Below, in pieces: positions 11,879 through 48,056 of a stretch of 61,073 nucleotides of DNA. A program made the position numbers and the translations under genes. The stretch covers positions 1 to 61,073 of the IMG/VR virus record IMGVR_UViG_3300022747_000019; one strand, written 5' to 3'. Under the pieces are notes generated by a model. That model was not told the DNA's origin, did no database searches, and was given only the letters and a program-made list of their open reading frames with translations. Each line of letters opens with the position of its first letter. Position 1 is the first letter of the stretch. The DNA is from a virus (Duplodnaviria; Caudoviricetes).

Positions 11879-13087
11879 TTACGCGCTCTTACCACCGGTT
11901 GGTTCCTTAGGTTTAGGAGGCGCTCCTCCTTGACTCGGATTCGACGCAGAACCCGCAATATTCGCTGGAATTCTTAAATCATCGTTTCCTGGTTTGCTTT
12001 CGTAACGTAGCTGCTCACGAGCTTCGTTAGGGGATATGATACCAGCATTTACTAATGTTGAGTGATATGCTGCAACGTCTTTTAGTTCAGGCTGCAATGC
12101 AGATACTGAAGACGTAACTGGCTCAATGTCATATCCGTAAAATCTTTCAACAGCACTAGCAAACTTAGTTAAAATCGGCATAACCGTTTCTAGATAGAAT
12201 AAACGTAAGTTAGGTGCGATGTTAGCGTTATTGCCACCGTCTAATAAGATTGGTGGTACGCCTAAAGCTTTTAAAATCTTGCTATCATGAGTTTTGATAC
12301 TTTGATCAAAATCCATCTCTTGGAAGGTATCAGCAATATTTGCTGCAGGCTTTAAGCCACTATCCAAAATCATGGGCTTACGAGCACCATTCTTTGGAGA
12401 GTATTTACTCATCCAGTTAGCTACTGTACGATCTTTTGCAACTTGCGACAAAGTATTATCGCTAGTTAAGATTAATCCGGTAACTGCTCCGTTCTCGAAG
12501 AATTGCTCTTGGAACGTTTGCATTTTGTATAAGATCTTAATATTACGATCAGCACTTACTAATCGTGAGGTACCGCGATAGATGCTGGTAGCTGCTAGAT
12601 CTTTTACATGAATAATTTCGTCTGGTTTGAAAACGATTGTCGTATTATAACGATAGTGCGCTATAAACGTTTTAGGGTCGGTTTCAATCTGAACACGAGA
12701 AGCAGGAAGATGATACAAATAAACTCCATCCCAATATATGAAGATATTACCTTCTAGGATGAAGTCAGTGAAAATGTTCGTTCTGAACTCTTGTGCACTT
12801 TGATACGGGTTAGGTGCAAAGTTAAGTAGTGTGTTAATCGTCTTTTGACGAACACCGCTTACGCGACCTTCTATCTTTTTATCTTTTACATCGTAATCCA
12901 TGCTTGCGCATCCGGATACGATCATATTAACGCCACGGTTTACAGTTTCTAGCTTTTCGAACGCTTGATTGTAAGTAATCGCTGAATCGGAGTTAATGAA
13001 AACACCTTGTTCGCGACTAATTAGCTGCTGCGCTGGATTAAGCTTCTCGGAATCAGCAAACCATGTTCTTGGATTATACCAACTCAT
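11879..13087 (-). CDS. Portal protein (HK97 family)
   Basis: PNPYQS, FFENGA, LGVPPILL, ISPNEAR motifs. Confidence 0.93.
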   Translation of the reverse strand: MSWYNPRTWFADSEKLNPAQQLISREQGVFINSDSAITYNQAFEKLETVNRGVNMIVSGCASMDYDVKDKKIEGRVSGVRQKTINTLLNFAPNPYQSAQEFRTNIFTDFILEGNIFIYWDGVYLYHLPASRVQIETDPKTFIAHYRYNTTIVFKPDEIIHVKDLAATSIYRGTSRLVSADRNIKILYKMQTFQEQFFENGAVTGLILTSDNTLSQVAKDRTVANWMSKYSPKNGARKPMILDSGLKPAANIADTFQEMDFDQSIKTHDSKILKALGVPPILLDGGNNANIAPNLRLFYLETVMPILTKFASAVERFYGYDIEPVTSSVSALQPELKDVAAYHSTLVNAGIISPNEAREQLRYESKPGNDDLRIPANIAGSASNPSQGGAPPKPKEPTGGKSA

Positions 13088-19691: not shown

Positions 19692-20087
19692 TTGGTGTAT
19701 AATTTCCACATGGACAAGCAAACACTAATTAAGATTTTGAACCGCGAAGCCGTAGCGGTTTGGGATAGCCTGAGCGAGATTTATCCGGCTTTGGTGCAAT
19801 ACGATTGCCCCAAAATTATTTTGAATGGTAGGCTTTGGCGCGTGGCTGGCTATTGTGACCAACCGCAAAACGTGATAGAATTGGGATATAAATTTTTTAC
19901 CAATGGTAAAAAATACGCAAATAACATGATTGACGTTATTTTACCACATGAGATAATTCACCAAGCCGACTACAATTTATTTGGCAATTCTGAAAAAATT
20001 TGTGGACATGGCGAAAACTGGTGTAAAATTATGGTACAATATGGACTCAAACCCGAACCCTTTCACACAATGGACATTAAACGATGA
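19692..20087 (+). CDS. SprT-like metalloprotease
   Basis: AG.C...I.L, ILPHEIIH, HGENW motifs. Confidence 0.75.
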   Translation: MVYNFHMDKQTLIKILNREAVAVWDSLSEIYPALVQYDCPKIILNGRLWRVAGYCDQPQNVIELGYKFFTNGKKYANNMIDVILPHEIIHQADYNLFGNSEKICGHGENWCKIMVQYGLKPEPFHTMDIKR

Positions 20088-20178
20088 TTGAGAATAAATT
20101 TTTTGTTGCTTGGTGTATTTTTACCCTTGTTTATGCTATAATCGTTGGAATGATAGAATTTTACAAGGATTTTATAAA

Positions 20179-20394
20179 ATGACAAATAAAATTTCATGGC
20201 TTGGCACAATCGCCTCAATTATCGGGGCTTTTGTTGTCGCTTCACAATTGTTTTTTGTGGGCTATTGCTTTTTTATCGTGGGTTCTGTATCATGGCTTAT
20301 CGTGGGTTTTGCCCGCCGTGACAAAAGCCTGATCGTTTTGAATGGTACTTTTTTTGTTGCGAATTTGCTAGGTTTGGCGAATTCTGTGGTATAA
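20179..20394 (+). CDS. Small multi-pass membrane protein
   Basis: MTNKISWLGT... with three hydrophobic segments after an AAGGA RBS. Confidence 0.55.
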   Translation: MTNKISWLGTIASIIGAFVVASQLFFVGYCFFIVGSVSWLIVGFARRDKSLIVLNGTFFVANLLGLANSVV

Positions 20395-20413
20395 TTAATT
20401 TTTTAAAGGAGCT

Positions 20414-20746
20414 TTGAAAATGACTGCAAAAACCGTAAACTACACCGCCGAACAAACCACTAAAATGGTGTCCGATTATGCGGCTGGCGTAACCCCTGAA
20501 ACTATCGCGCAAGAATTGGGCAAATCGGTGCGCTCGATTGTCGCTAAACTTTCACGCGAGGGCGTTTATAAGAAAAAAGAATATAAAACCAAAACGGGCG
20601 CTCCCGTTGTGAAAAAAGACGCGCACGCCGATGCAATTGGCGCGATTCTGAAAATGACCGAGGCCGAGACTGAAAGCCTTACAAAAGCGAATAAAACCGC
20701 TTTGGAAAAGATTTTCCAAGCCTTGGCGAATTCTCGCCCACTGTAA
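20414..20746 (+). CDS. T5 A2-like protein, paralog 2
   Basis: Clear paralog of 16605..16928. Confidence 0.7.
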   Translation: MKMTAKTVNYTAEQTTKMVSDYAAGVTPETIAQELGKSVRSIVAKLSREGVYKKKEYKTKTGAPVVKKDAHADAIGAILKMTEAETESLTKANKTALEKIFQALANSRPL

Positions 20747-20801
20747 GCCGAAAGGCTTACAAAAGCCCCACAAAATGTGGGGCTTTTTTCGTCTCAAAAT
20801 G

Positions 20802-20890
20802 AATACTTTTGTTTTCAGAATAATTTGAAAACAAAAGTATTACTTTTTGCTGCGCCAAAATTATACCATAATTTTGCGGCGCGTGTCAAG
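20802..20890 (-). repeat. Palindrome plus consensus minus-strand promoter unit, copy 3
   Basis: Same palindrome and TTGACA..TATAAT (minus) as copy 2. Confidence 0.8.
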
Positions 20891-20984
20891 AACTTTTTTG
20901 TAGGTGTTTTCCCCTATGTTGTTTTTATGCAACCTGGCACGATTCTTGCGCCACGCCCGTAATTATTAATTCATAATTATGGAA

Positions 20985-21150
20985 CCAAATGTGAATGATT
21001 CTCATTCGCTATTGACTAACGGGTCAGTAGACGTAAGCGCGCTGCGCCAGTGCAAAAGTGGCAAGCCTAAATTTTTGAGCGTGCGCTGCGCCAGTGCGCG
21101 ATCAAGTGCAAAATCTAGCATGTCATCCGCGATTAATAGTGCGCAAGTGA
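20985..21150. other. Candidate injection-stop-signal-like repeat region
   Basis: 15-bp direct repeat GCGCTGCGCCAGTGC (21039, 21083), AGTGC repeats and a GAATGATTCTCATTC near-palindrome at the end of the pre-early block. Confidence 0.45.
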
Positions 21151-21391
21151 ATTTTTTCTCACTTGGCAAAGTTTTTGAAAAGTTTTATAATTTCTTTATG
21201 AAATCGAGAAAGGGACTGAGATGACAGACAGCGAATTTTTCCAACAAATTCAGGAAGACTGGTTCAATGAATTTGCTTGTGACGAACGTGATAAAATTTT
21301 CATCGCTACCATCGTACAAGACGAAAATTTTGAATTTGACGATGTTCCCCTTTGAGAGTATAATAGAATCTTAGACAGCGCAGAAACCAAT

Positions 21392-21718
21392 TTGAAAGGA
21401 CATATGATGACTGCAACCAAAACCGTAAACTACACCGCCGAGATGACCGCCGAGATCGTGGAGGCCTACAAAGCTGGTGAAGCAGTGGAAACTATCGCCA
21501 CTCGCATGAACCGTACCACTCGCTCGATCGTGGCTAAGCTGGCGCGTGAAGGCGTGTACAAAGCTAAGACCAAAGCTAAGGGTGAGCACGCTCCCCGTAA
21601 AGCTGAGCTGATTACCGAAATTGCTCACAGCATCGGTACTAACGAAGAACTGATCGAGTCGCTTGAGAAAGCTACCCGTGAAGCTCTGGAGCTGATTGCC
21701 AAGGCTGTTCGTGCCTGA
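21392..21718 (+). CDS. T5 A2-like protein, paralog 3
   Basis: VNYTAEMT...RSIVAKLAREGVYK...SLEKA. Confidence 0.7.
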   Translation: MKGHMMTATKTVNYTAEMTAEIVEAYKAGEAVETIATRMNRTTRSIVAKLAREGVYKAKTKAKGEHAPRKAELITEIAHSIGTNEELIESLEKATREALELIAKAVRA

Positions 21719-22209
21719 TGCAATTGAGGGTCAGAAAATTTATACTTGATGACCCTCACTTTTCTTGATATAATATATACTTATAAAACGAAATAACAGC
21801 CGAGACGGCCGGCCACGCTAACAATTATTATCTTGATTATGCCAGCCGTCTCGTGTTATAATACTATATAGATTACGCGATTTGTTAAATAATTAACTAG
21901 TCTGAATTCTGGGTGACAGCGGTCGGCATTAGATAGCCAAACGTCTTAATTGTGGGAAAACAGTATATACCGAGCCACAGCCCTTAGCAACCATAATAAA
22001 TTACTTAAACTGTGCTAGCCAGGTCTGACTTGCTACACTATCGAAATGGGGCCACTAGTAGGTACTCTGCAGAAGTACGCGAAAGGGTATATGTTCGAAT
22101 TTAGCAAGCAGTTTGTTAAGTAATTTATTATGGGTGTTATGAGGTCTGCATTTATTGCAGAGTAGCAACTTAATGGCTGAGGAATTCTCTAGCAGCCGCC
22201 CAATCTAAT

Positions 22210-22285
22210 GTCGCGTTGGACTTCTGGTGAGGTCAGTACCCTTTCAAGGTACCCAGGCAGGGTTCGAATCCCGCACGCGATACCA
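22210..22285 (+). tRNA. tRNA-Glu(TTC), isolated from the main cluster
   Basis: GTCGCGT/ACGCGAT acceptor, GTACC-CTTTCAA-GGTAC anticodon arm, TTCGAAT, CCA. Confidence 0.85.
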
Positions 22286-22286
22286 A

Positions 22287-22388
22287 ATCCACTGACGAGT
22301 AGCCTGCAATGGCACGAAACTCTCAACCTTCGTAGTAGGTGTGCGTGATTCTCCCAAGTCACCGCCTGCCGCAGTTGAGGGTCTGGAT
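22287..22388 (+). ncRNA. Type I hammerhead ribozyme
   Basis: Stem I ATCCA/TGGAT, CTGACGA core, stem II GTAGCC..GGCAC, GAAA, stem III CTCTCAAC/GTTGAGGG, GTC cleavage triplet at 22381-22383. Confidence 0.85.
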
Positions 22389-22797
22389 GAAACCGAACCC
22401 GGTCATAGACTGGTCTCAAAGTAGTAATTCAAGGGAGCCGACCCTATACCCCTTGCAGGGCTCCGCTATGAGTCGAACCATTAAACTAGAACCCGACCCT
22501 AAACTGTAGCGAGGTCGATAAATACAAGCACAGTCGGAGTAGCCGTGATCACCTGGAAGGTAGTATGTAAGCTTCGGCTGTGTACATCCAGTTAGTGCAG
22601 GCGTTTAGAGCGTAGCACATTTGCGTTGAGGAACGATAAACCTACCAAGTCTCCCCTTACCATGAAAACAGTTAGCCGATTAACCATCAGGCTCAGATGA
22701 GTAGTTTAGGGTCAATGCAGTCAGCGGATTGGTCATCCCCGTAAGTCGTTGTGTGAGCACCCGCAAAAACACAGTGCTGTTGCAACAGCCAATGTTC

Positions 22798-22837
22798 AAA
22801 GCCCCACACGGTCGCTCCGTGGTGGGGCTTTGTTTTG
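22798..22837 (+). terminator. Intrinsic terminator ending the RNA locus
   Basis: AAAGCCCCAC...GTGGGGCTTT hairpin followed by GTTTTG. Confidence 0.65.
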
Positions 22838-22925
22838 CCCCAAAATACCAACCCGCAAAATTTTGTGCGTCTTGCGCCCATTATACAGTGCCTAACCTAC
22901 ATTTGTCAAGTGAATTTTCTGCACA

Positions 22926-23015
22926 CTGACCCTAAACCGCATAAATTATAGCAAGTCCACGCATCTGACCCTAAATTGTAGCAAACCAGAGCAAATTTGT
23001 GCGGTTTAGGGTCAG
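22926..23015. repeat. 22-bp inverted repeat containing GACCCTAAA motifs
   Basis: CTGACCCTAAACCGCATAAATT / AATTTGTGCGGTTTAGGGTCAG with one mismatch; a third GACCCTAAA lies in the spacer. Confidence 0.8.
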
Positions 23016-23077
23016 GACGAAAAAAAGCCCACTTAAATCAAATTAAGTGGGCTTTTGTGCATTTAAGTGCAATTAAG

Positions 23078-23404
23078 TCAAATTTTCTGCAATTTAGGGT
23101 CAGATTTAGCCACCAAATTGCGTTCGATCATGATTAGGACCTGTTTATTTACTTTTTCGAGCGATTCTAGCAATTCTAGGTTACAATCGAGCAATTCTGC
23201 AATCCGTTCGATGTGGGTGCTCTTTTTTGTTGGCACCTCACCGCGTTTGTTGAGGTATTGCTTTTTTTGGTAGACGCCGAGGCTGCTAAGCTTAGCAATA
23301 ATGCTACGTTCTGGCACCTCGAACTGCTGGGCTAGCTCAGATACGGTCACACCGGCCTGATAGTCTTCAATCAACTGCTTGGTAGATTCATTAGTGTATT
23401 TCAT
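23078..23404 (-). CDS. T5 A2-like protein, paralog 4 (divergent)
   Basis: KYTNEST...RSIIAKLSSLGVYQKK...SLEKVNK. Confidence 0.65.
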   Translation of the reverse strand: MKYTNESTKQLIEDYQAGVTVSELAQQFEVPERSIIAKLSSLGVYQKKQYLNKRGEVPTKKSTHIERIAELLDCNLELLESLEKVNKQVLIMIERNLVAKSDPKLQKI

Positions 23405-23416
23405 GTTCTTGACTCC

Positions 23417-24433
23417 TTACCATGGCAGCTCTGGATTGAAATTAGAGCCCCTAAAGGGCTTACTAACTGCAATAGGCATGACTGGTTGATGCATGAAAAT
23501 ATCTCTGGCGACCAAAGGCTCTGGAATATTGTCCCAATTGTTAGGGTCTAGAATCGTGTACTCATTACGATTACTTGGGTGTGCTGCCCAGGTTTGTAAT
23601 ACCATAAATTTAGCGAGCTTAGGCAAGTGTCCAATTGCTGTATCGCCAAGGTGATTCAATTTAGTACAAGTAGCAGGGTTGTTAGGGATACCAGCTCGTG
23701 AGCCTGTTTTATCTGTGATTGCAGTGTTGCGTAGTGCTAGTAGATCGCTGTGAGGAATATCAGGGACTGTAACACCAACAAGTTTACTCAGTTCAGGGTC
23801 AAGTAGAGTTTCTAATCCTAAAATGCTCCACTCAGAATACTTGATACCTTGAAATTTCTTAAATCCAGCTAGAATAATTGGTACTAGTGGGTTGATGACA
23901 GACTTATATTGTTGATTACCCTTAGGTGCATCTTTGAAGAAGTTTTGGCGAGCACTAGTAGCCAAGAGTCCCGACCCTAAGGCAAAGTAATCTTCACGCA
24001 AGCGTGTATTTGCATCCCATGTAGCGTGTGCATCGTACAAGCCATGTTCGTTCTTGACAGCCTTCCATGTACCAAAATAAGCTAACATCTGGTGTGGAAG
24101 CCAGGTTAGCTTTTGTGGAATCATATTTTTAAGTGCCCAAGCTTCTACAACTGCAGCTTTTGCTTCCAACTTACATTGCTGGATTATAGTGTCACTGAGC
24201 TGAATTTGATCTGGATCGAAACTACCCATTGATTCTATAACGGATTCTTCAACACCGTCACTGCCACCTTCTCCATAGGACTGGAGCTGATCTACTAATC
24301 GCTGTTTAGTGAGCTCATACTTGCGTTCTGCAGCTCGTCTAGCCATATCTAGGCGTTCTGAGCGTAGTTGCAAGTAAAATTGCTGAAAGTCTCTTGCGAG
24401 ACCTGGAAAATCTAATAGTTTAATATCGTTCAT
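23417..24433 (-). CDS. Conserved T5-like hypothetical protein
   Basis: 338 aa; VPIILAGFK...YSEW and RNEYTILDPNNWDNIPE recall a T5 early hypothetical (from memory). Confidence 0.55.
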   Translation of the reverse strand: MNDIKLLDFPGLARDFQQFYLQLRSERLDMARRAAERKYELTKQRLVDQLQSYGEGGSDGVEESVIESMGSFDPDQIQLSDTIIQQCKLEAKAAVVEAWALKNMIPQKLTWLPHQMLAYFGTWKAVKNEHGLYDAHATWDANTRLREDYFALGSGLLATSARQNFFKDAPKGNQQYKSVINPLVPIILAGFKKFQGIKYSEWSILGLETLLDPELSKLVGVTVPDIPHSDLLALRNTAITDKTGSRAGIPNNPATCTKLNHLGDTAIGHLPKLAKFMVLQTWAAHPSNRNEYTILDPNNWDNIPEPLVARDIFMHQPVMPIAVSKPFRGSNFNPELPW

Positions 24434-24835
24434 TGTTAAAAAGAAAGAATGACCCTAAGTTGGATCAGTTGAGGGTCTAGGATTTTTGCCCTAGAGTGGG
24501 GGAGTGGCAGAGGGTGGGACGATTTGCTTTAAAATCCCAATTATCAAACCACAATAAAGTTTTTAATATATAAAAGACGTAATTGCCCTAAATTGGGTAA
24601 ATTTTGAGGGCAGGAGAGTTAGTTTGATTAGATTGCGTAATCGTGAAAGATTGAAAAGATCATATGTGACTATTTCAACTTTCCCGTCGCTACTAATACT
24701 AACTCCTGCCCTAGTATCTTATCTTCTTAAGTTACTATAATTATAGCACATTCGATAACAAAAAAGCAAGCGTATTTTTTATATTCGTGATAATTTGTGT
24801 TTTTTCGTTAATCTGGTTGTAGATTTGTATGAATG

Positions 24836-25099
24836 TTACAGCTTAGGGTCGACTAAGATTTTGAATTTGTCGATGATGTTTTGATCAGATTTCTTTAGAT
24901 CTATGAAGTTCGTGTACTCTAGTGCCGCAAGTAGGGCAAGAAAATCTTCAACCTCTCCGATGAATTCTTGCTTGTTGGTCTCTTTTCTCTCTGGGTGATG
25001 ATTATCTGGCCCAAATCTGCGGATTTTGGAGACAGCTTGAATAATCTCAGCGGATTCTTCCTGAAGTTTGTCTAGGTAATATTGGATTTTGTCGTTCAT
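24836..25099 (-). CDS. MazG-like nucleotide pyrophosphohydrolase
   Basis: LQEESAEIIQAVSK...GEVED pattern. Confidence 0.6.
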   Translation of the reverse strand: MNDKIQYYLDKLQEESAEIIQAVSKIRRFGPDNHHPERKETNKQEFIGEVEDFLALLAALEYTNFIDLKKSDQNIIDKFKILVDPKL

Positions 25100-37892: not shown

Positions 37893-38011
37893 TATTTAAA
37901 TTGACTGATTAGTGTAGTGGCAAACACGCAAGGGCCAACATCGTACGCGATATGGTTGGAATCGCCAGTGTAACGTAGGTTCGAATCCTGCATTAGTCAA
38001 TTTAAATATGG
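37890..38011 (+). ncRNA. tRNA-like RNA on a 20-bp extended acceptor stem, no CCA
   Basis: CCATATTTAAATTGACTGAT/ATTAGTCAATTTAAATATGG; D arm GTGT..ACAC; T arm GTAGG-TTCGAAT-CCTGC; non-canonical central arm. Confidence 0.6.
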
Positions 38012-40501: not shown

Positions 40502-40578
40502 GCAGGGAATAGTGTCAGTGGCAAGCACACTTGTCTGTGAAACAAGAAGTCAGGGATCGAAACCCGTTCTCCTGCCCA
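40502..40578 (+). tRNA. tRNA-His(GTG)
   Basis: CTTGT-CTGTGAA-ACAAG; CCCA end. Confidence 0.82.
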
Positions 40579-42873: not shown

Positions 42874-42996
42874 GTGAAAGAAACAGCTACTTCTGACTGT
42901 TAATCAGGGAGTCTAGGTTCGAATCCTAGCAGGTCGTCTTAGATCTGTAATGTAATGGTAGCATCCTTCCGTTCTGTTTCGCCTTGTTCTTATCTA
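42866..42996 (+). ncRNA. YrlA-like Y RNA (permuted tRNA mimic) with intact Asn(GTT) anticodon arm
   Basis: GAAACAG/CTGTTTC stem, CTACTTC, TCTGA-CTGTTAA-TCAGG, T arm, closed acceptor CAGGTC/GATCTG, D arm; directly upstream of Ro60. Confidence 0.8.
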
Positions 42997-43011
42997 TTTA
43001 AAAGGAATCAA

Positions 43012-44322
43012 ATGTCTTCGATCAATCGTGTTGTTCGTACACCTGCATTTAACTCTGTGGGTACAAAAGTGCCTGCTATTAATGCAGAGCGTCAACTAAA
43101 GCGTGTTACTCTTGCAGCTATGCTGTGGGATAATCAGTTTTATCTTGATGGTAAAACTCACGCAGAACTGGTCAAAGACCTTGTGGCTAAAGTCGCTCCT
43201 GAAAAGGTAACGGCTCTAGCTGAGGAAGCCCGTACAAAGTTCAAACTGCGTCACATTCCTCTGTTGCTTGCCCGCGAGCTTGCTCGAAACGGAAAACTGC
43301 AAGCAAACGCGTTGACTAATGTCATTCAGCGTCCAGACGAAATGTCTGAGTTCCTGTCCATTTATTGGAAGGAAGGCAAATCTGCTGTGTCGAACCAGGT
43401 TAAAAAAGGCTTAGCGGCTTGTTTTAACAAGTTCAATGAGTACCAGCTTGCCAAATGGAATAAGAACTCTGCCGCAATCAAATTGCGTGATGTGATGTTC
43501 ATTTCCCACCCTAAACCGCAAAATGCCGAGCAAGAGGCGCTTTTCAAGCGCATCGCGGCTGATACACTTGAGACACCAGACACATGGGAAACTCAACTAT
43601 CTAGCGGCGCAGATAAGTGTGGTACGTTTACCCGTCTTATGACGGAAAAGAAACTAGGAGCCCTAGCTTTCTTGCGTAATCTGCGTAATATGCGCGACAG
43701 TGGTGTTTCGGATTCCCTTATCCGTAGTTATGCATCTACTGTTGACGTTAGCAAAGTCCTGCCATTCCGCTATATTGCGGCGGCTCGTATTGTACCACAA
43801 TACGAAGACATGCTAGAAACAATGATGTTCCGTAGCCTAGCTACACATCAAAAAATCCCTGGAAAGACAGTCTTGTTAATCGACGTTAGCGGCAGCATGT
43901 TCGGTACCAAGATTTCCGCAAAATCAGATCTAGATCGCTTCGATGCGGCAGCAGCACTCGCTATGTTGTGCCGTGAAGTATGCGAAGAAGTCGAGATTTA
44001 TAGCTTTAGTAACAATGCTGTGCGTGTCGCACCTCGTCGCGGATTTGCTCTCCGTGAAGCTATTACAAACTCTCAAGGTCACGGTGGAACTGCCTTAGGC
44101 AATTCCATGAAGACTGTGAACGGCAATGGTTCGTATGATCGTTGTATCGTGTTCACTGACGAGCAAAGCTATGATCGCCCAGGTGCTCCTCGTGGCCGTG
44201 GTTACGTTGTTAACGTAGCAAGCTACCAAAACGGAGTTAACCATAGTGCATGGACAGAGATTAACGGCTTTAGCGAGTCTGTTATCGACTATATCCAAGC
44301 CTTGGAGCAGGAAGCTGCTTAA
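43012..44322 (+). CDS. rsr: Ro60/TROVE-domain RNA-binding protein with vWA domain
   Basis: FNEYQLAKW, KLRDVMFISHPKP, TWETQLS, AFLRNLRNM, LPFRYIAA, MIDAS DVSGSM and FTDEQ; AAGGA RBS before ATG 43012. Confidence 0.92.
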   Translation: MSSINRVVRTPAFNSVGTKVPAINAERQLKRVTLAAMLWDNQFYLDGKTHAELVKDLVAKVAPEKVTALAEEARTKFKLRHIPLLLARELARNGKLQANALTNVIQRPDEMSEFLSIYWKEGKSAVSNQVKKGLAACFNKFNEYQLAKWNKNSAAIKLRDVMFISHPKPQNAEQEALFKRIAADTLETPDTWETQLSSGADKCGTFTRLMTEKKLGALAFLRNLRNMRDSGVSDSLIRSYASTVDVSKVLPFRYIAAARIVPQYEDMLETMMFRSLATHQKIPGKTVLLIDVSGSMFGTKISAKSDLDRFDAAAALAMLCREVCEEVEIYSFSNNAVRVAPRRGFALREAITNSQGHGGTALGNSMKTVNGNGSYDRCIVFTDEQSYDRPGAPRGRGYVVNVASYQNGVNHSAWTEINGFSESVIDYIQALEQEAA

Positions 44323-47028: not shown

Positions 47029-47111
47029 TATTTTAGCACTTTAGAAGCCCACGCCTGTGCACAGGTACGTGAATGTGGTTACGACGCTTGTCCGTTAGAG
47101 TGCTAAAATAT

Positions 47112-47430
47112 GGTTGTATGAAGCAGACAGAAAAGTGTTCTGGACGCGGGTTCGACTCCCGCCATCTCCACCGAAGCATACTGAGCCGACTGTAGAATTC
47201 AGTAAGCATTTAGGGAAGATCCACGTTTAGTGTGTTTCGTTGGGGATGTCATGGTTTCGACAGGGCAAAGAGTAAACAAGTAGACAACTCGGCAATGTAG
47301 AAGCCGTAGGGTTGGGTAACCGGCCGCAGAAGCAAAACAAAAATAAACGCAAACGAATCAGTTTACGCATTAGCAGCTTAATTGCCGCTTAGGGTTTTTG
47401 TCGGTTCCTCGTAACAGAATACCGACTCTA
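47112..47430 (+). ncRNA. ssrA: Circularly permuted (two-piece) tmRNA, tag ANESVYALAA*
   Basis: 3' acceptor piece GGACGCGGGTTCGACTCCCGCCATCTCCACC (to 47172) precedes the 5' piece GGGGATG...TTCGAC (47242); G3:U70; tag at 47349-47381. Outer ends approximate. Confidence 0.9.
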
Positions 47431-47441
47431 TTAAGGAATTT

Positions 47442-48056
47442 ATGAAAAAACGAAGTATACTTGACCCTAAGCTGTTCCAAGAGGACGGTAGTAGCAATAG
47501 CTTTACTAAAACAGTAGCAAGAACTCATGAATTCTACCTAAGCGGCCCTATTGAGGACGCAGAGAATTATATTGATTGGTTTGATACCATTCGTAATGCT
47601 AGTAGTAATGATGCTATCCGTATTTACATTAACTCACCTGGTGGCGATCTTTATACTACGCTACAGTTTTTACGAGTTATGAGTGATACAGAAGCCCATG
47701 TAACTACTAGTGTTGAAGGCGCTTGTATGAGTGCCGCAACTATGATCTTCTTGCATGGACACGCACAAGAAGTAACTCCACACAGCCTGTTTATGTTCCA
47801 CGATTATTCTAGTGGCACTTTTGGCAAAGGTGGAGAACAGTATGACCAGATTCAGTTTGAACGTCAATGGTCTAAGAAATTTATGTCGGAAGTTTATAAA
47901 GACTTCTTGACCGACTCCGAAATCGAATCCATGATGCACAATAAAGACATTTGGATGGATTCTGACGAAGTAGTCAAGCGTTTAACTACGCTCGCTGAAA
48001 AGCGAAACAAAGATTTGGGTGATGATGCAGCTGGGAAGGCCGGCGACCAGCCTTGA
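47442..48056 (+). CDS. ClpP-like protease
   Basis: IYINSPGG, ACMSAATMI, FMFHD, KDIWM. Confidence 0.85.
   Translation: MKKRSILDPKLFQEDGSSNSFTKTVARTHEFYLSGPIEDAENYIDWFDTIRNASSNDAIRIYINSPGGDLYTTLQFLRVMSDTEAHVTTSVEGACMSAATMIFLHGHAQEVTPHSLFMFHDYSSGTFGKGGEQYDQIQFERQWSKKFMSEVYKDFLTDSEIESMMHNKDIWMDSDEVVKRLTTLAEKRNKDLGDDAAGKAGDQP

Follow-up and report, generated by a model that had tools for sequence, protein, structure and literature searches.

The stretch analysed here, referred to below as the window, is the linear IMG/VR virus record IMGVR_UViG_3300022747_000019 (61,073 bases; CheckV completeness 58%). Its region 21760-23400 contains no open reading frame (ORF) of substance and appears to be a non-coding RNA locus in which a tRNA-Glu gene is followed directly, on the same strand, by a type I hammerhead ribozyme. 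With promoters and terminator taken as consensus matches, the hammerhead unit would be part of a non-coding transcript of about 0.9 kilobases (kb) lying between sigma-70-type promoters and a terminator, and we shall argue that the ribozyme probably acts on behalf of the RNA downstream of it. The elements of the locus are as follows.

21746-21774, plus strand: promoter-like sequence P1, TTGATG-17-TATAAT, with TG before the -10 (consensus; TTGAT...TATAAT blocks conserved in the MAFFT alignment of the relatives)
21833-21862, plus strand: promoter-like sequence P2, TTGATT-18-TATAAT, with TG before the -10, upstream of the conserved RNA start GGGTGACAGCGG (consensus, alignment)
21911-22205, plus strand: conserved structured 5' domain, starting with GGGUGACAGCGG at 21911-21922 (alignments)
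21945-21982, plus strand: invariant hairpin CUUAAUUGUGG...CCACAGCC in the 5' domain (alignment)
21991-22008 with 22116-22133, plus strand: long-range helix of 18 base pairs (bp) around a variable insert (alignment, covariation)
22132-22162, plus strand: GGGUGUUAUGAG with hairpin (alignment)
22175-22197, plus strand: hairpin with CUCUAG loop, then GCCC (alignment)
22210-22285, plus strand: tRNA-Glu, anticodon UUC, discriminator A, CCA encoded at 22283-22285 (ARAGORN; Rfam tRNA model, 38.7 bits)
22287-22388, plus strand: type I hammerhead ribozyme (sequence reading, centroid fold, alignment, covariance model, descriptor)
22328-22373, plus strand: structured insert of stem III, 46 nucleotides (nt) (centroid fold, alignment)
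22383-22384, plus strand: predicted scissile bond, C17 / U22384 (hammerhead geometry)
22384-22836, plus strand: downstream non-coding RNA, about 450 nt (alignment, RNA contigs)
22495-22506 with 22702-22713, plus strand: long-range pair of GACCCUAAACUG with UAGUUUAGGGUC in the downstream RNA (alignment)
22726-22738, plus strand: hairpin with loop UGGUC in the downstream RNA (alignment, covariation)
22802-22837, plus strand: intrinsic terminator, a G+C-rich hairpin then UUUGUUUUG (conserved in relatives)
22880-22909, minus strand: perfect consensus promoter TTGACA-18-TATAAT (12/12), pointing into the terminator and the 3' end of the RNA gene (conserved in relatives)

The encoded CCA is followed by two A residues (22286-22287), the second of which belongs to stem I, where AUCCA (22287-22291) pairs with UGGAU (22384-22388) over 5 bp. 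After the first strand of this stem come core positions C3-A9 (CUGACGA, 22292-22298), stem II (22299-22315: G-C, U-A, a bulged A, G-C, C-G, C-G, with the loop UGCAAU), G12 A13 A14 (22316-22318), and stem III, in which 22319-22327 pairs with 22374-22382 over 9 bp, the first pair being A15.1-U16.1 (A22319-U22382). The stem III insert has as its distal hairpin GUGAUUCUCCCAAGUCAC, with a loop motif, UUCCCAA, common to several relatives. C17 is at 22383, and the core requirements of a hammerhead are all present (C3 U4 G5 A6 N7 G8 A9, G12 A13 A14, A15.1-U16.1, H17). A centroid fold of 22286-22392 gives the three-stem shape; sequence order and alignment place both strand ends at stem I with stems II and III closed, the type I topology. 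The preliminary description of this stretch, made from its letters, had reported a complete core, three stems and an insert of about 45 nt in stem III, beginning right after the CCA of a lone tRNA-Glu, and had placed cleavage after 22383 with an RNA of about 450 nt beyond it. The sequence reading and the fold bear out this anatomy, hammerhead geometry gives the same cut, and the terminator at 22802-22837 would end the downstream piece at about 22836.

Hammerhead cleavage leaves a 2',3'-cyclic phosphate on the upstream piece and a 5'-OH on the downstream piece, and a type I hammerhead cuts at its own 3' edge, nearly all of the ribozyme lying upstream of the cut. The cut predicted here would fall 98 nt past the CCA and leave only 5 nt of ribozyme on the downstream RNA. 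Across the family stem I is only 3-5 bp long, and no pairing that would constitute a tertiary contact between stem I and loop II could be defined, although loop II (UGCAAU/UGCAAGU) and the 3' flank GAAAACC are conserved.

Is the hammerhead real? The bare core pattern is unremarkable, with 5 matches in the window against 4.8 expected. A descriptor that adds stems to the core (stem I at least 4, stem II at least 2, stem III at least 6) matches the window once, at 22287-22388, and gave any match in just 2 of 200 dinucleotide-preserving shuffles. Relatives came from two pattern scans of IMG/VR, one for a tRNA T-loop and then the core (39 loci) and one for the core plus a UGCAA loop (at least 113 loci), and 18 distinct sequences were aligned with MAFFT, a structure-blind procedure. 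The catalytic positions are invariant in all 18; at N7 only U and C occur, and position 17 has C in 13 sequences, A in 5 and G in none. Over the 17 stem pairs 92.8% of cells are paired, and in 15 of the 17 both partners change. Not one of 500 shuffles was as good, and sliding the partners by 1-3 columns lowered pairing to 24-45%. Most unpaired stem II cells arise because the window and two relatives of its subgroup (L090 and L010), which have a bulged A in this stem, are out of register in two columns. Finally, a leave-one-out covariance model, R1, built from 17 relatives with the window excluded, gives 22284-22395 a score of 83.3 bits (rough E 3.6e-24), with 11.7 bits for the next match in the window. 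Because the core is invariant, the stems covary and the leave-one-out model scores this highly, the comparison strongly indicates that the site is, as first proposed, a genuine hammerhead, and that it is under selection as RNA; its self-cleavage is predicted.

The Rfam hammerhead search that the preliminary description had put forward as a check went the other way. There was no match in the whole window at gathering score nor on 1 kb at E<=10, and on a 126-nt piece the best result was a partial, cut-off alignment to the Hammerhead_3 core at 14.7 bits against a gathering score of 48.5. As a control, the canonical short relative L075 was searched and also fell below threshold (22.1 bits), and Rfam reported no hammerhead in 14 related loci either. 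The Rfam models are insensitive to this phage group, and since L075 and the 14 loci are missed too, the miss reflects the models more than the site.

The tRNA-Glu scores 38.7 bits with the Rfam tRNA model (gathering score 29) and is indeed a lone gene: by ARAGORN it is the sole tRNA of the window outside an array at 36.5-50.8 kb, which holds two further tRNA-Glu(UUC) genes. In eleven homologues at the same locus the acceptor, D and anticodon stems differ yet stay paired through compensatory changes. Since their cloverleaves are intact and their differing stems compensated, the tRNAs at these loci are, to all appearances, real tRNAs.

An alignment from -650 to +1000 around the ribozyme in 11 lineages shows a common order: two promoters, the 5' domain, a hairpin, the long helix, two hairpins, tRNA-Glu (in some lineages only), the hammerhead, a downstream domain of 450-900 nt, and the terminator. 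The long helix covaries in 19 distinct versions and has 24 G-U against 2 A-C pairs, a count biased by a scoring that favoured G-U; the excess would favour an RNA made from the plus strand. The 5' domain has a fold z-score of -2.31. In the 3' domain the stems of the UGGUN hairpins covary, 8 of 10 distinct versions being paired; single-sequence folding of the 3' RNA is uninformative on either strand (z -1.57 and -0.78). On the minus strand a terminator-like site is seen at 22789-22776, which together with the promoter at 22880-22909 could give a short antisense RNA. No Rfam family was found for the 5' or the 3' domain (gathering score; 1-kb pieces at E<=10), and neither the GOLLD nor the ROOL covariance model matched anything in 21300-23100 at E<=10 or, at gathering score, in 25 related loci. 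When cultured phages were searched by blastn with 2 kb of sequence and with the invariant 55-nt hairpin at E<=10, the locus was not found; matches were limited to the tRNA in Ralstonia phage RsoM2USA and one chance-level match of 23 nt. A tRNA-like ACCA tail closing the 5' domain was considered and dropped as a general feature, being present only in L042, L048 and L119.

Which element does the hammerhead go with? The R1 model was searched over 253 fetched viral loci, giving 120 matches at E<=0.001. We kept the 71 matches of at least 95 nt together with the window, and excluded 48 shorter ones (ordinary hammerheads with short stem III) and one that was cut off. Among these 72 long-stem-III matches there are 55 distinct sequences (54 when the truncated L009 is counted with L035). 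ARAGORN, run on the 400 nt upstream, found a tRNA in 17 of the 55, in every case tRNA-Glu(UUC); 11 abut the ribozyme (tRNA end -3 to +3 nt from the model start), 6 lie at 70-265 nt, and the other 38 hammerheads have none. Conversely, 61 of the 69 fetched loci with the conserved 5' hairpin have an R1 match (anywhere in the locus, on any strand and in any order), and 2 of the 8 without one end within 200 nt. Other elements can come between tRNA and ribozyme, namely a TTGA...TATAAT promoter in L290, L349 and L362 and a separate 92-nt module in L346, L360 and L330. The hammerhead thus evidently goes with the downstream RNA and the locus, not with the tRNA, which looks like an optional module.

The relatives differ in other ways too. 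Six (L285, L296, L316, L321, L349 and L362) have a different downstream module with conserved AAAUACAGCUAUCUUCUAAC...GUAAUGUG, absent from the window, and a module that L349 and L362 have within the 5' domain is downstream in L292. The locus would seem to behave like a set of exchangeable RNA modules. In several relatives it lies directly upstream of a tRNA plus tmRNA (transfer-messenger RNA) array. A loose pattern of 17 fixed bases and a wide gap was also run on genome contigs (596 billion bases); none of L150-L269, among the matches listed, had the hairpin GAGCCACAGCC, and these were set aside as chance matches.

The expression data are assembled contigs from four freshwater metatranscriptome runs; such contigs cannot tell where the 5' end lies, which strand was transcribed or what fraction was cleaved. 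In one data set (X1) word depth is 17.8 over the flank at 20000-20769, 312 over 21208-22479, 6053 over 22481-22789 and 30 over the flank at 23077-25000, with short contigs at 22450-22510 near a depth of 10,000. Depth is absent over 20835-21168, and 22790-22838 is likewise uncovered by RNA contigs; neither gap proves anything alone. RNA contigs from three studies cover 22410-22789. Two data sets from other studies have contigs confined to 22410-22759: X2 has a single contig at 22410-22759, and X3 has pieces at 22419-22757 with adapter letters at both outer ends. The depth pattern fits a very abundant 3'-domain RNA and argues against plain DNA carry-over.

We think it probable that the hammerhead, sitting in an early sigma-70 non-coding transcript, serves the downstream RNA, and that tRNA-Glu is a co-transcribed, optional passenger of a highly expressed locus. 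Host sigma-70 RNA polymerase would make the transcript, presumably early in infection, starting at about 21870-21911 and stopping at the terminator at 22837. With the polymerase beyond 22388, the ribozyme would fold and cut between C22383 and U22384. This would free the downstream RNA (22384 to about 22836) with 5 ribozyme bases and a 5'-OH, which may stabilise it, and the 5-bp stem I would come apart after the cut. The upstream product would carry a terminal 2',3'-cyclic phosphate and comprise the ribozyme along with the 5' domain and tRNA-Glu; from it a usable tRNA-Glu could be made by host RNase P, expected to cut at 22209/22210, and by host 3' nucleases trimming to the encoded CCA. It is the geometry of the cut, the constancy of the hammerhead and the optional nature of the tRNA that suggest a ribozyme maturing the downstream RNA.

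Several observations weigh against this reading. Uncleaved RNA or DNA must be present, given that the X1 contig 21208-22479 spans the cut site. Depth in X1 rises at position 22480 rather than at 22384, and the rise coincides with branch points that join contigs of related phages; the very high X1 depth may come from a relative's RNA. In X2 and X3 the RNA contigs begin at 22410 and 22419, again not at 22384. With strandless contigs and a perfect minus-strand promoter at 22909-22880, antisense RNA could account for signal over the same stretch. The site is below threshold with the Rfam hammerhead models, and a stem I of 5 bp with no tertiary contact identified could mean slow cleavage. Lastly, a pure passenger role leaves unexplained that every tRNA of these loci (17/17) is tRNA-Glu; a high need for tRNA-Glu early in infection and a role of the tRNA-ribozyme product are both possibilities.

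A bolder interpretation, which we regard as rather doubtful, is that these loci, in the distant T5-like phage of the window and in related uncultured viral contigs, encode phage RNAs of a new class, large, modular and highly expressed, whose transcript is split by a hammerhead into two structured RNAs, that the tRNA-ribozyme product is itself functional, and that hammerheads abutting tRNAs are a general device for making defined RNA ends. A tRNA body joined to a ribozyme with a 2',3'-cyclic phosphate may, for instance, act as a decoy or signal for host damaged-tRNA sensing or repair. The phage also has a gene for a putative Ro60-type protein (see below).

The hammerhead might instead serve the tRNA, freeing tRNA-Glu from the downstream RNA so that exonucleases can trim the trailer, in a looser counterpart of the role proposed for theta ribozymes (see below). 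The tight, conserved spacing of the 11 distinct abutting cases would suit this, as would the restriction of the locus tRNAs to tRNA-Glu(UUC) with intact cloverleaves in 17 of 17, and complete hammerheads also abut tRNA-Lys, Asp, Gln, Arg (two anticodons), Leu and Trp. However, a cut 98 nt past the CCA makes no tRNA 3' end; it would leave a structured 98-nt trailer with a 2',3'-cyclic phosphate. Moreover, 38 of the 55 distinct members keep the hammerhead without a tRNA within 400 nt, and in some relatives a promoter stands between the two. The T-loop-plus-core pattern demanded both elements and gives no frequency for their pairing. A service to the tRNA is therefore unlikely in our judgment.

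Could cleavage be regulated, with the stem III insert sensing a protein, RNA or small molecule and setting the ratio of full-length transcript to halves? The insert is kept at a span of 54-70 nt throughout the family, the UUCCCAA loop recurs in several lineages, and the very short stem I could make activity dependent on a cofactor. But the insert diverges strongly in sequence between lineages; L035, L044, L010 and L090, for instance, are without the UUCCCAA loop. The RNA-data contig across the cut site fits regulation, and it is expected anyway from nascent or uncleaved molecules or DNA. No partner was identified, and inspection by eye for pairing between the loop and the 5' hairpin showed no covariation. 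The particular candidate considered, kissing of UUCCCAA with UGGGAA of the 5' hairpin, was rejected since lineages without the loop keep the hairpin. We accordingly give regulated cleavage only a slim chance.

That there is no ribozyme function at all, the site being a by-product of clustered DNA sites of the GACCCTAAA type or a decayed relic, is very improbable: the 3' strand of stem III plus C17 (22375-22383) is the reverse complement of a one-mismatch copy of this 9-mer, 6 of the 10 exact copies in the window lie in 22495-23101 and the Rfam models miss the site, but the catalytic positions are fixed, N7 and H17 vary within the allowed letters, all three stems show compensatory changes, and stem III in many relatives is unlike the DNA motif (e.g. 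CUGGAGGUC, CUGUGGGUC, GCUAGGAUC).

How does the locus compare with known systems? Phage hammerheads are common; they lie beside genes, and their presumed task is to cut up long transcripts (Perreault et al. 2011, PMC3088659). The window ribozyme is like the type I phage and prophage hammerheads described there in its core, three-stem junction, open stem I, phage host and intergenic site, and splitting a long phage transcript into pieces is the role proposed for them; its loop II holds UGCAA, as in many of the short phage hammerheads fetched here. It differs from them in being part of a structured non-coding RNA operon and not lying between protein genes, and in its 46-nt stem III insert, stem I of 3-5 bp, abutting tRNA and sub-threshold Rfam score. 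The passages of PMC3088659 consulted make no statement on tRNA neighbours of hammerheads.

Theta ribozymes are HDV-like (hepatitis delta virus-like) and cut no more than 5 nt to either side of the 3' end of a phage tRNA, an end that they are proposed to generate (Kienbeck et al. 2024, PMC10879173). As in theta ribozymes, a small ribozyme of a self-cleaving type (cleavage being predicted here) shares the strand of a phage tRNA gene and follows it immediately on the 3' side. The contrast with them that had been drawn at the outset holds as far as that paper's passages go, with a cut 98 nt from the tRNA end here against one within 5 nt. Theta has an HDV-like double pseudoknot where the window has a hammerhead, and theta cuts at its own 5' edge, giving the tRNA end, whereas the window ribozyme is predicted to cut at its own 3' edge, giving the 5' end of the next RNA. 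Theta ribozymes are mainly from gut phages and often accompany suppressor tRNAs; here the runs in which the stretch occurs are freshwater metatranscriptomes and the tRNA is always tRNA-Glu. No HDV-type family appeared in the Rfam searches of the window, the 1-kb pieces or the 126-nt piece.

GOLLD and ROOL are large phage-linked RNAs that are often near tRNAs (Weinberg et al. 2017, PMC5737381). The present locus resembles them in being a large structured phage non-coding RNA of unknown function close to, or co-transcribed with, tRNAs. It differs in its modular, variable architecture and its internal hammerhead, and a ribozyme is not mentioned for GOLLD or ROOL in the passages of PMC5737381 consulted; the likeness is one of context only.

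In the main texts of a largely non-subscription literature we found no paper describing hammerheads that abut phage tRNAs. One 2026 paper (PMC13481778) does state, in the part consulted, that hammerheads occur next to phage tRNAs, but it cites for this the theta-ribozyme paper PMC10879173, from which the word hammerhead is absent.

The window family is not the only one of its kind. Among the 39 T-loop-plus-core loci ARAGORN places a tRNA just upstream in 24, and 18 of those have a complete hammerhead by the descriptor. The 18 loci amount to 14 distinct ribozymes, behind tRNA-Lys, Asp, Gln, Glu, Arg(ACG), Arg(UCU), Leu and Trp, and hammerhead-tRNA pairing is thus apparently not unique to the family of the window. 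Other hammerheads abutting tRNAs were noted at L007:1411-1520, in L006, L016, L026 and L029, and in L012, L027, L034 and L039. In L007 tRNA-Gln seems to contribute its 3' end, and the tRNA that follows its 5' end, to stem I, and the predicted cut is exactly at this 5' end. L006, L026 and L029 have a conserved ACCUUGUGGUGUA just past the cut, and in the tRNA-Arg(ACG) group stem III spans 73-122 nt. The 63.6-kb IMG/VR contig L111 has eight hammerhead-model matches on one strand within about 7 kb, of the short type I and between small genes. A Twister-P5 ribozyme (47.3 bits) is present at L089:1188-1246 on the minus strand, within 2 kb of two short hammerheads with the same type of loop II. Other UUUAGGGUC sites were considered as trans targets of the window ribozyme and rejected, as stem I would not pair with them.

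On protein similarity the phage itself is a siphovirus distantly related to T5. It has a fused protease and capsid protein with about 35% identity to the counterparts in Vibrio phage pVp-1 and Aeromonas phage AhSzq-1, and it also encodes a T5_p143 tail-completion domain, terminase and portal proteins. The RNA locus is bracketed on both sides by three small paralogous DNA-binding proteins of about 108-110 amino acids (aa), with weak GcrA-like and phage DNA-binding matches (phrog_1725, phrog_323):

20414-20746, plus strand: first paralog
21392-21718, plus strand: second paralog
23078-23404, minus strand: third paralog

The 9-mer GACCCTAAA has 38 matches in the window at no more than one mismatch against 13 expected, a number reached in no shuffle. 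Matches lie at 22440-23101 and also at 12671, 27499, 32222 and 56289; the 6 of 10 exact copies at 22495-23101 are in both orientations and partly form inverted pairs. In relatives, copies also stand just upstream of the -35 of the locus promoters. The 9-mer may be an operator for the three paralogs, an RNA pairing element, or both.

By ARAGORN the window has 27 tRNAs and a permuted tmRNA. The latter, in two pieces at 47055-47472 (plus strand), is of the betaproteobacterial type with the tag ANESVYALAA; tmRNAs of the same kind are present in the relatives L292, L309 and L349, and the type hints at a betaproteobacterial host. The Rfam tRNA model has two further plus-strand matches that ARAGORN did not call, at 37903-37999 (41.8 bits) and 40503-40575 (30.2 bits), the first of which is 97 nt long and may carry an insert. 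Within the tRNA array a 455-aa ORF (42955-44322, plus strand) has TROVE and Ro60 vWA domains, and its product would, from these domains, be a Ro60-type RNA-binding protein. Bacterial Ro proteins bind Y RNAs that have tRNA-like parts. Rfam reported no Y RNA family in the window; the Ro60-type gene is bordered on both sides by unassigned gaps of about 400 nt.

What is known here is the type I hammerhead fold; what appears to be new is a long-insert hammerhead fused to a tRNA-Glu amid a conserved, unannotated RNA locus. A whole group of hammerheads, those in which the stem III insert is long and stem I very short, escapes the Rfam models, so surveys based on Rfam will undercount this group. The finding points to a conserved non-coding locus of at least 1 kb in uncultured freshwater phages that matches no Rfam family.

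Engineered cassettes place a hammerhead 5' and an HDV ribozyme 3' of a guide RNA, and guide arrays can be spaced with tRNAs. Their logic is the same, the hammerhead giving a nearly scarless 5'-OH and the tRNA being cut out by RNase P and 3' nucleases, with the difference that they are man-made and the present arrangement is natural. Thousands of hammerheads are known in phages and bacteria, and their biological role is mostly unclear. The window locus suggests a candidate job for a phage hammerhead, which may be to provide a defined 5'-OH end on a structured, abundant RNA transcribed together with a tRNA. Nature would then have its own version of the engineered design, with the ribozyme placed ahead and the tRNA used as spacer, and the arrangement would mirror that of the theta ribozymes.

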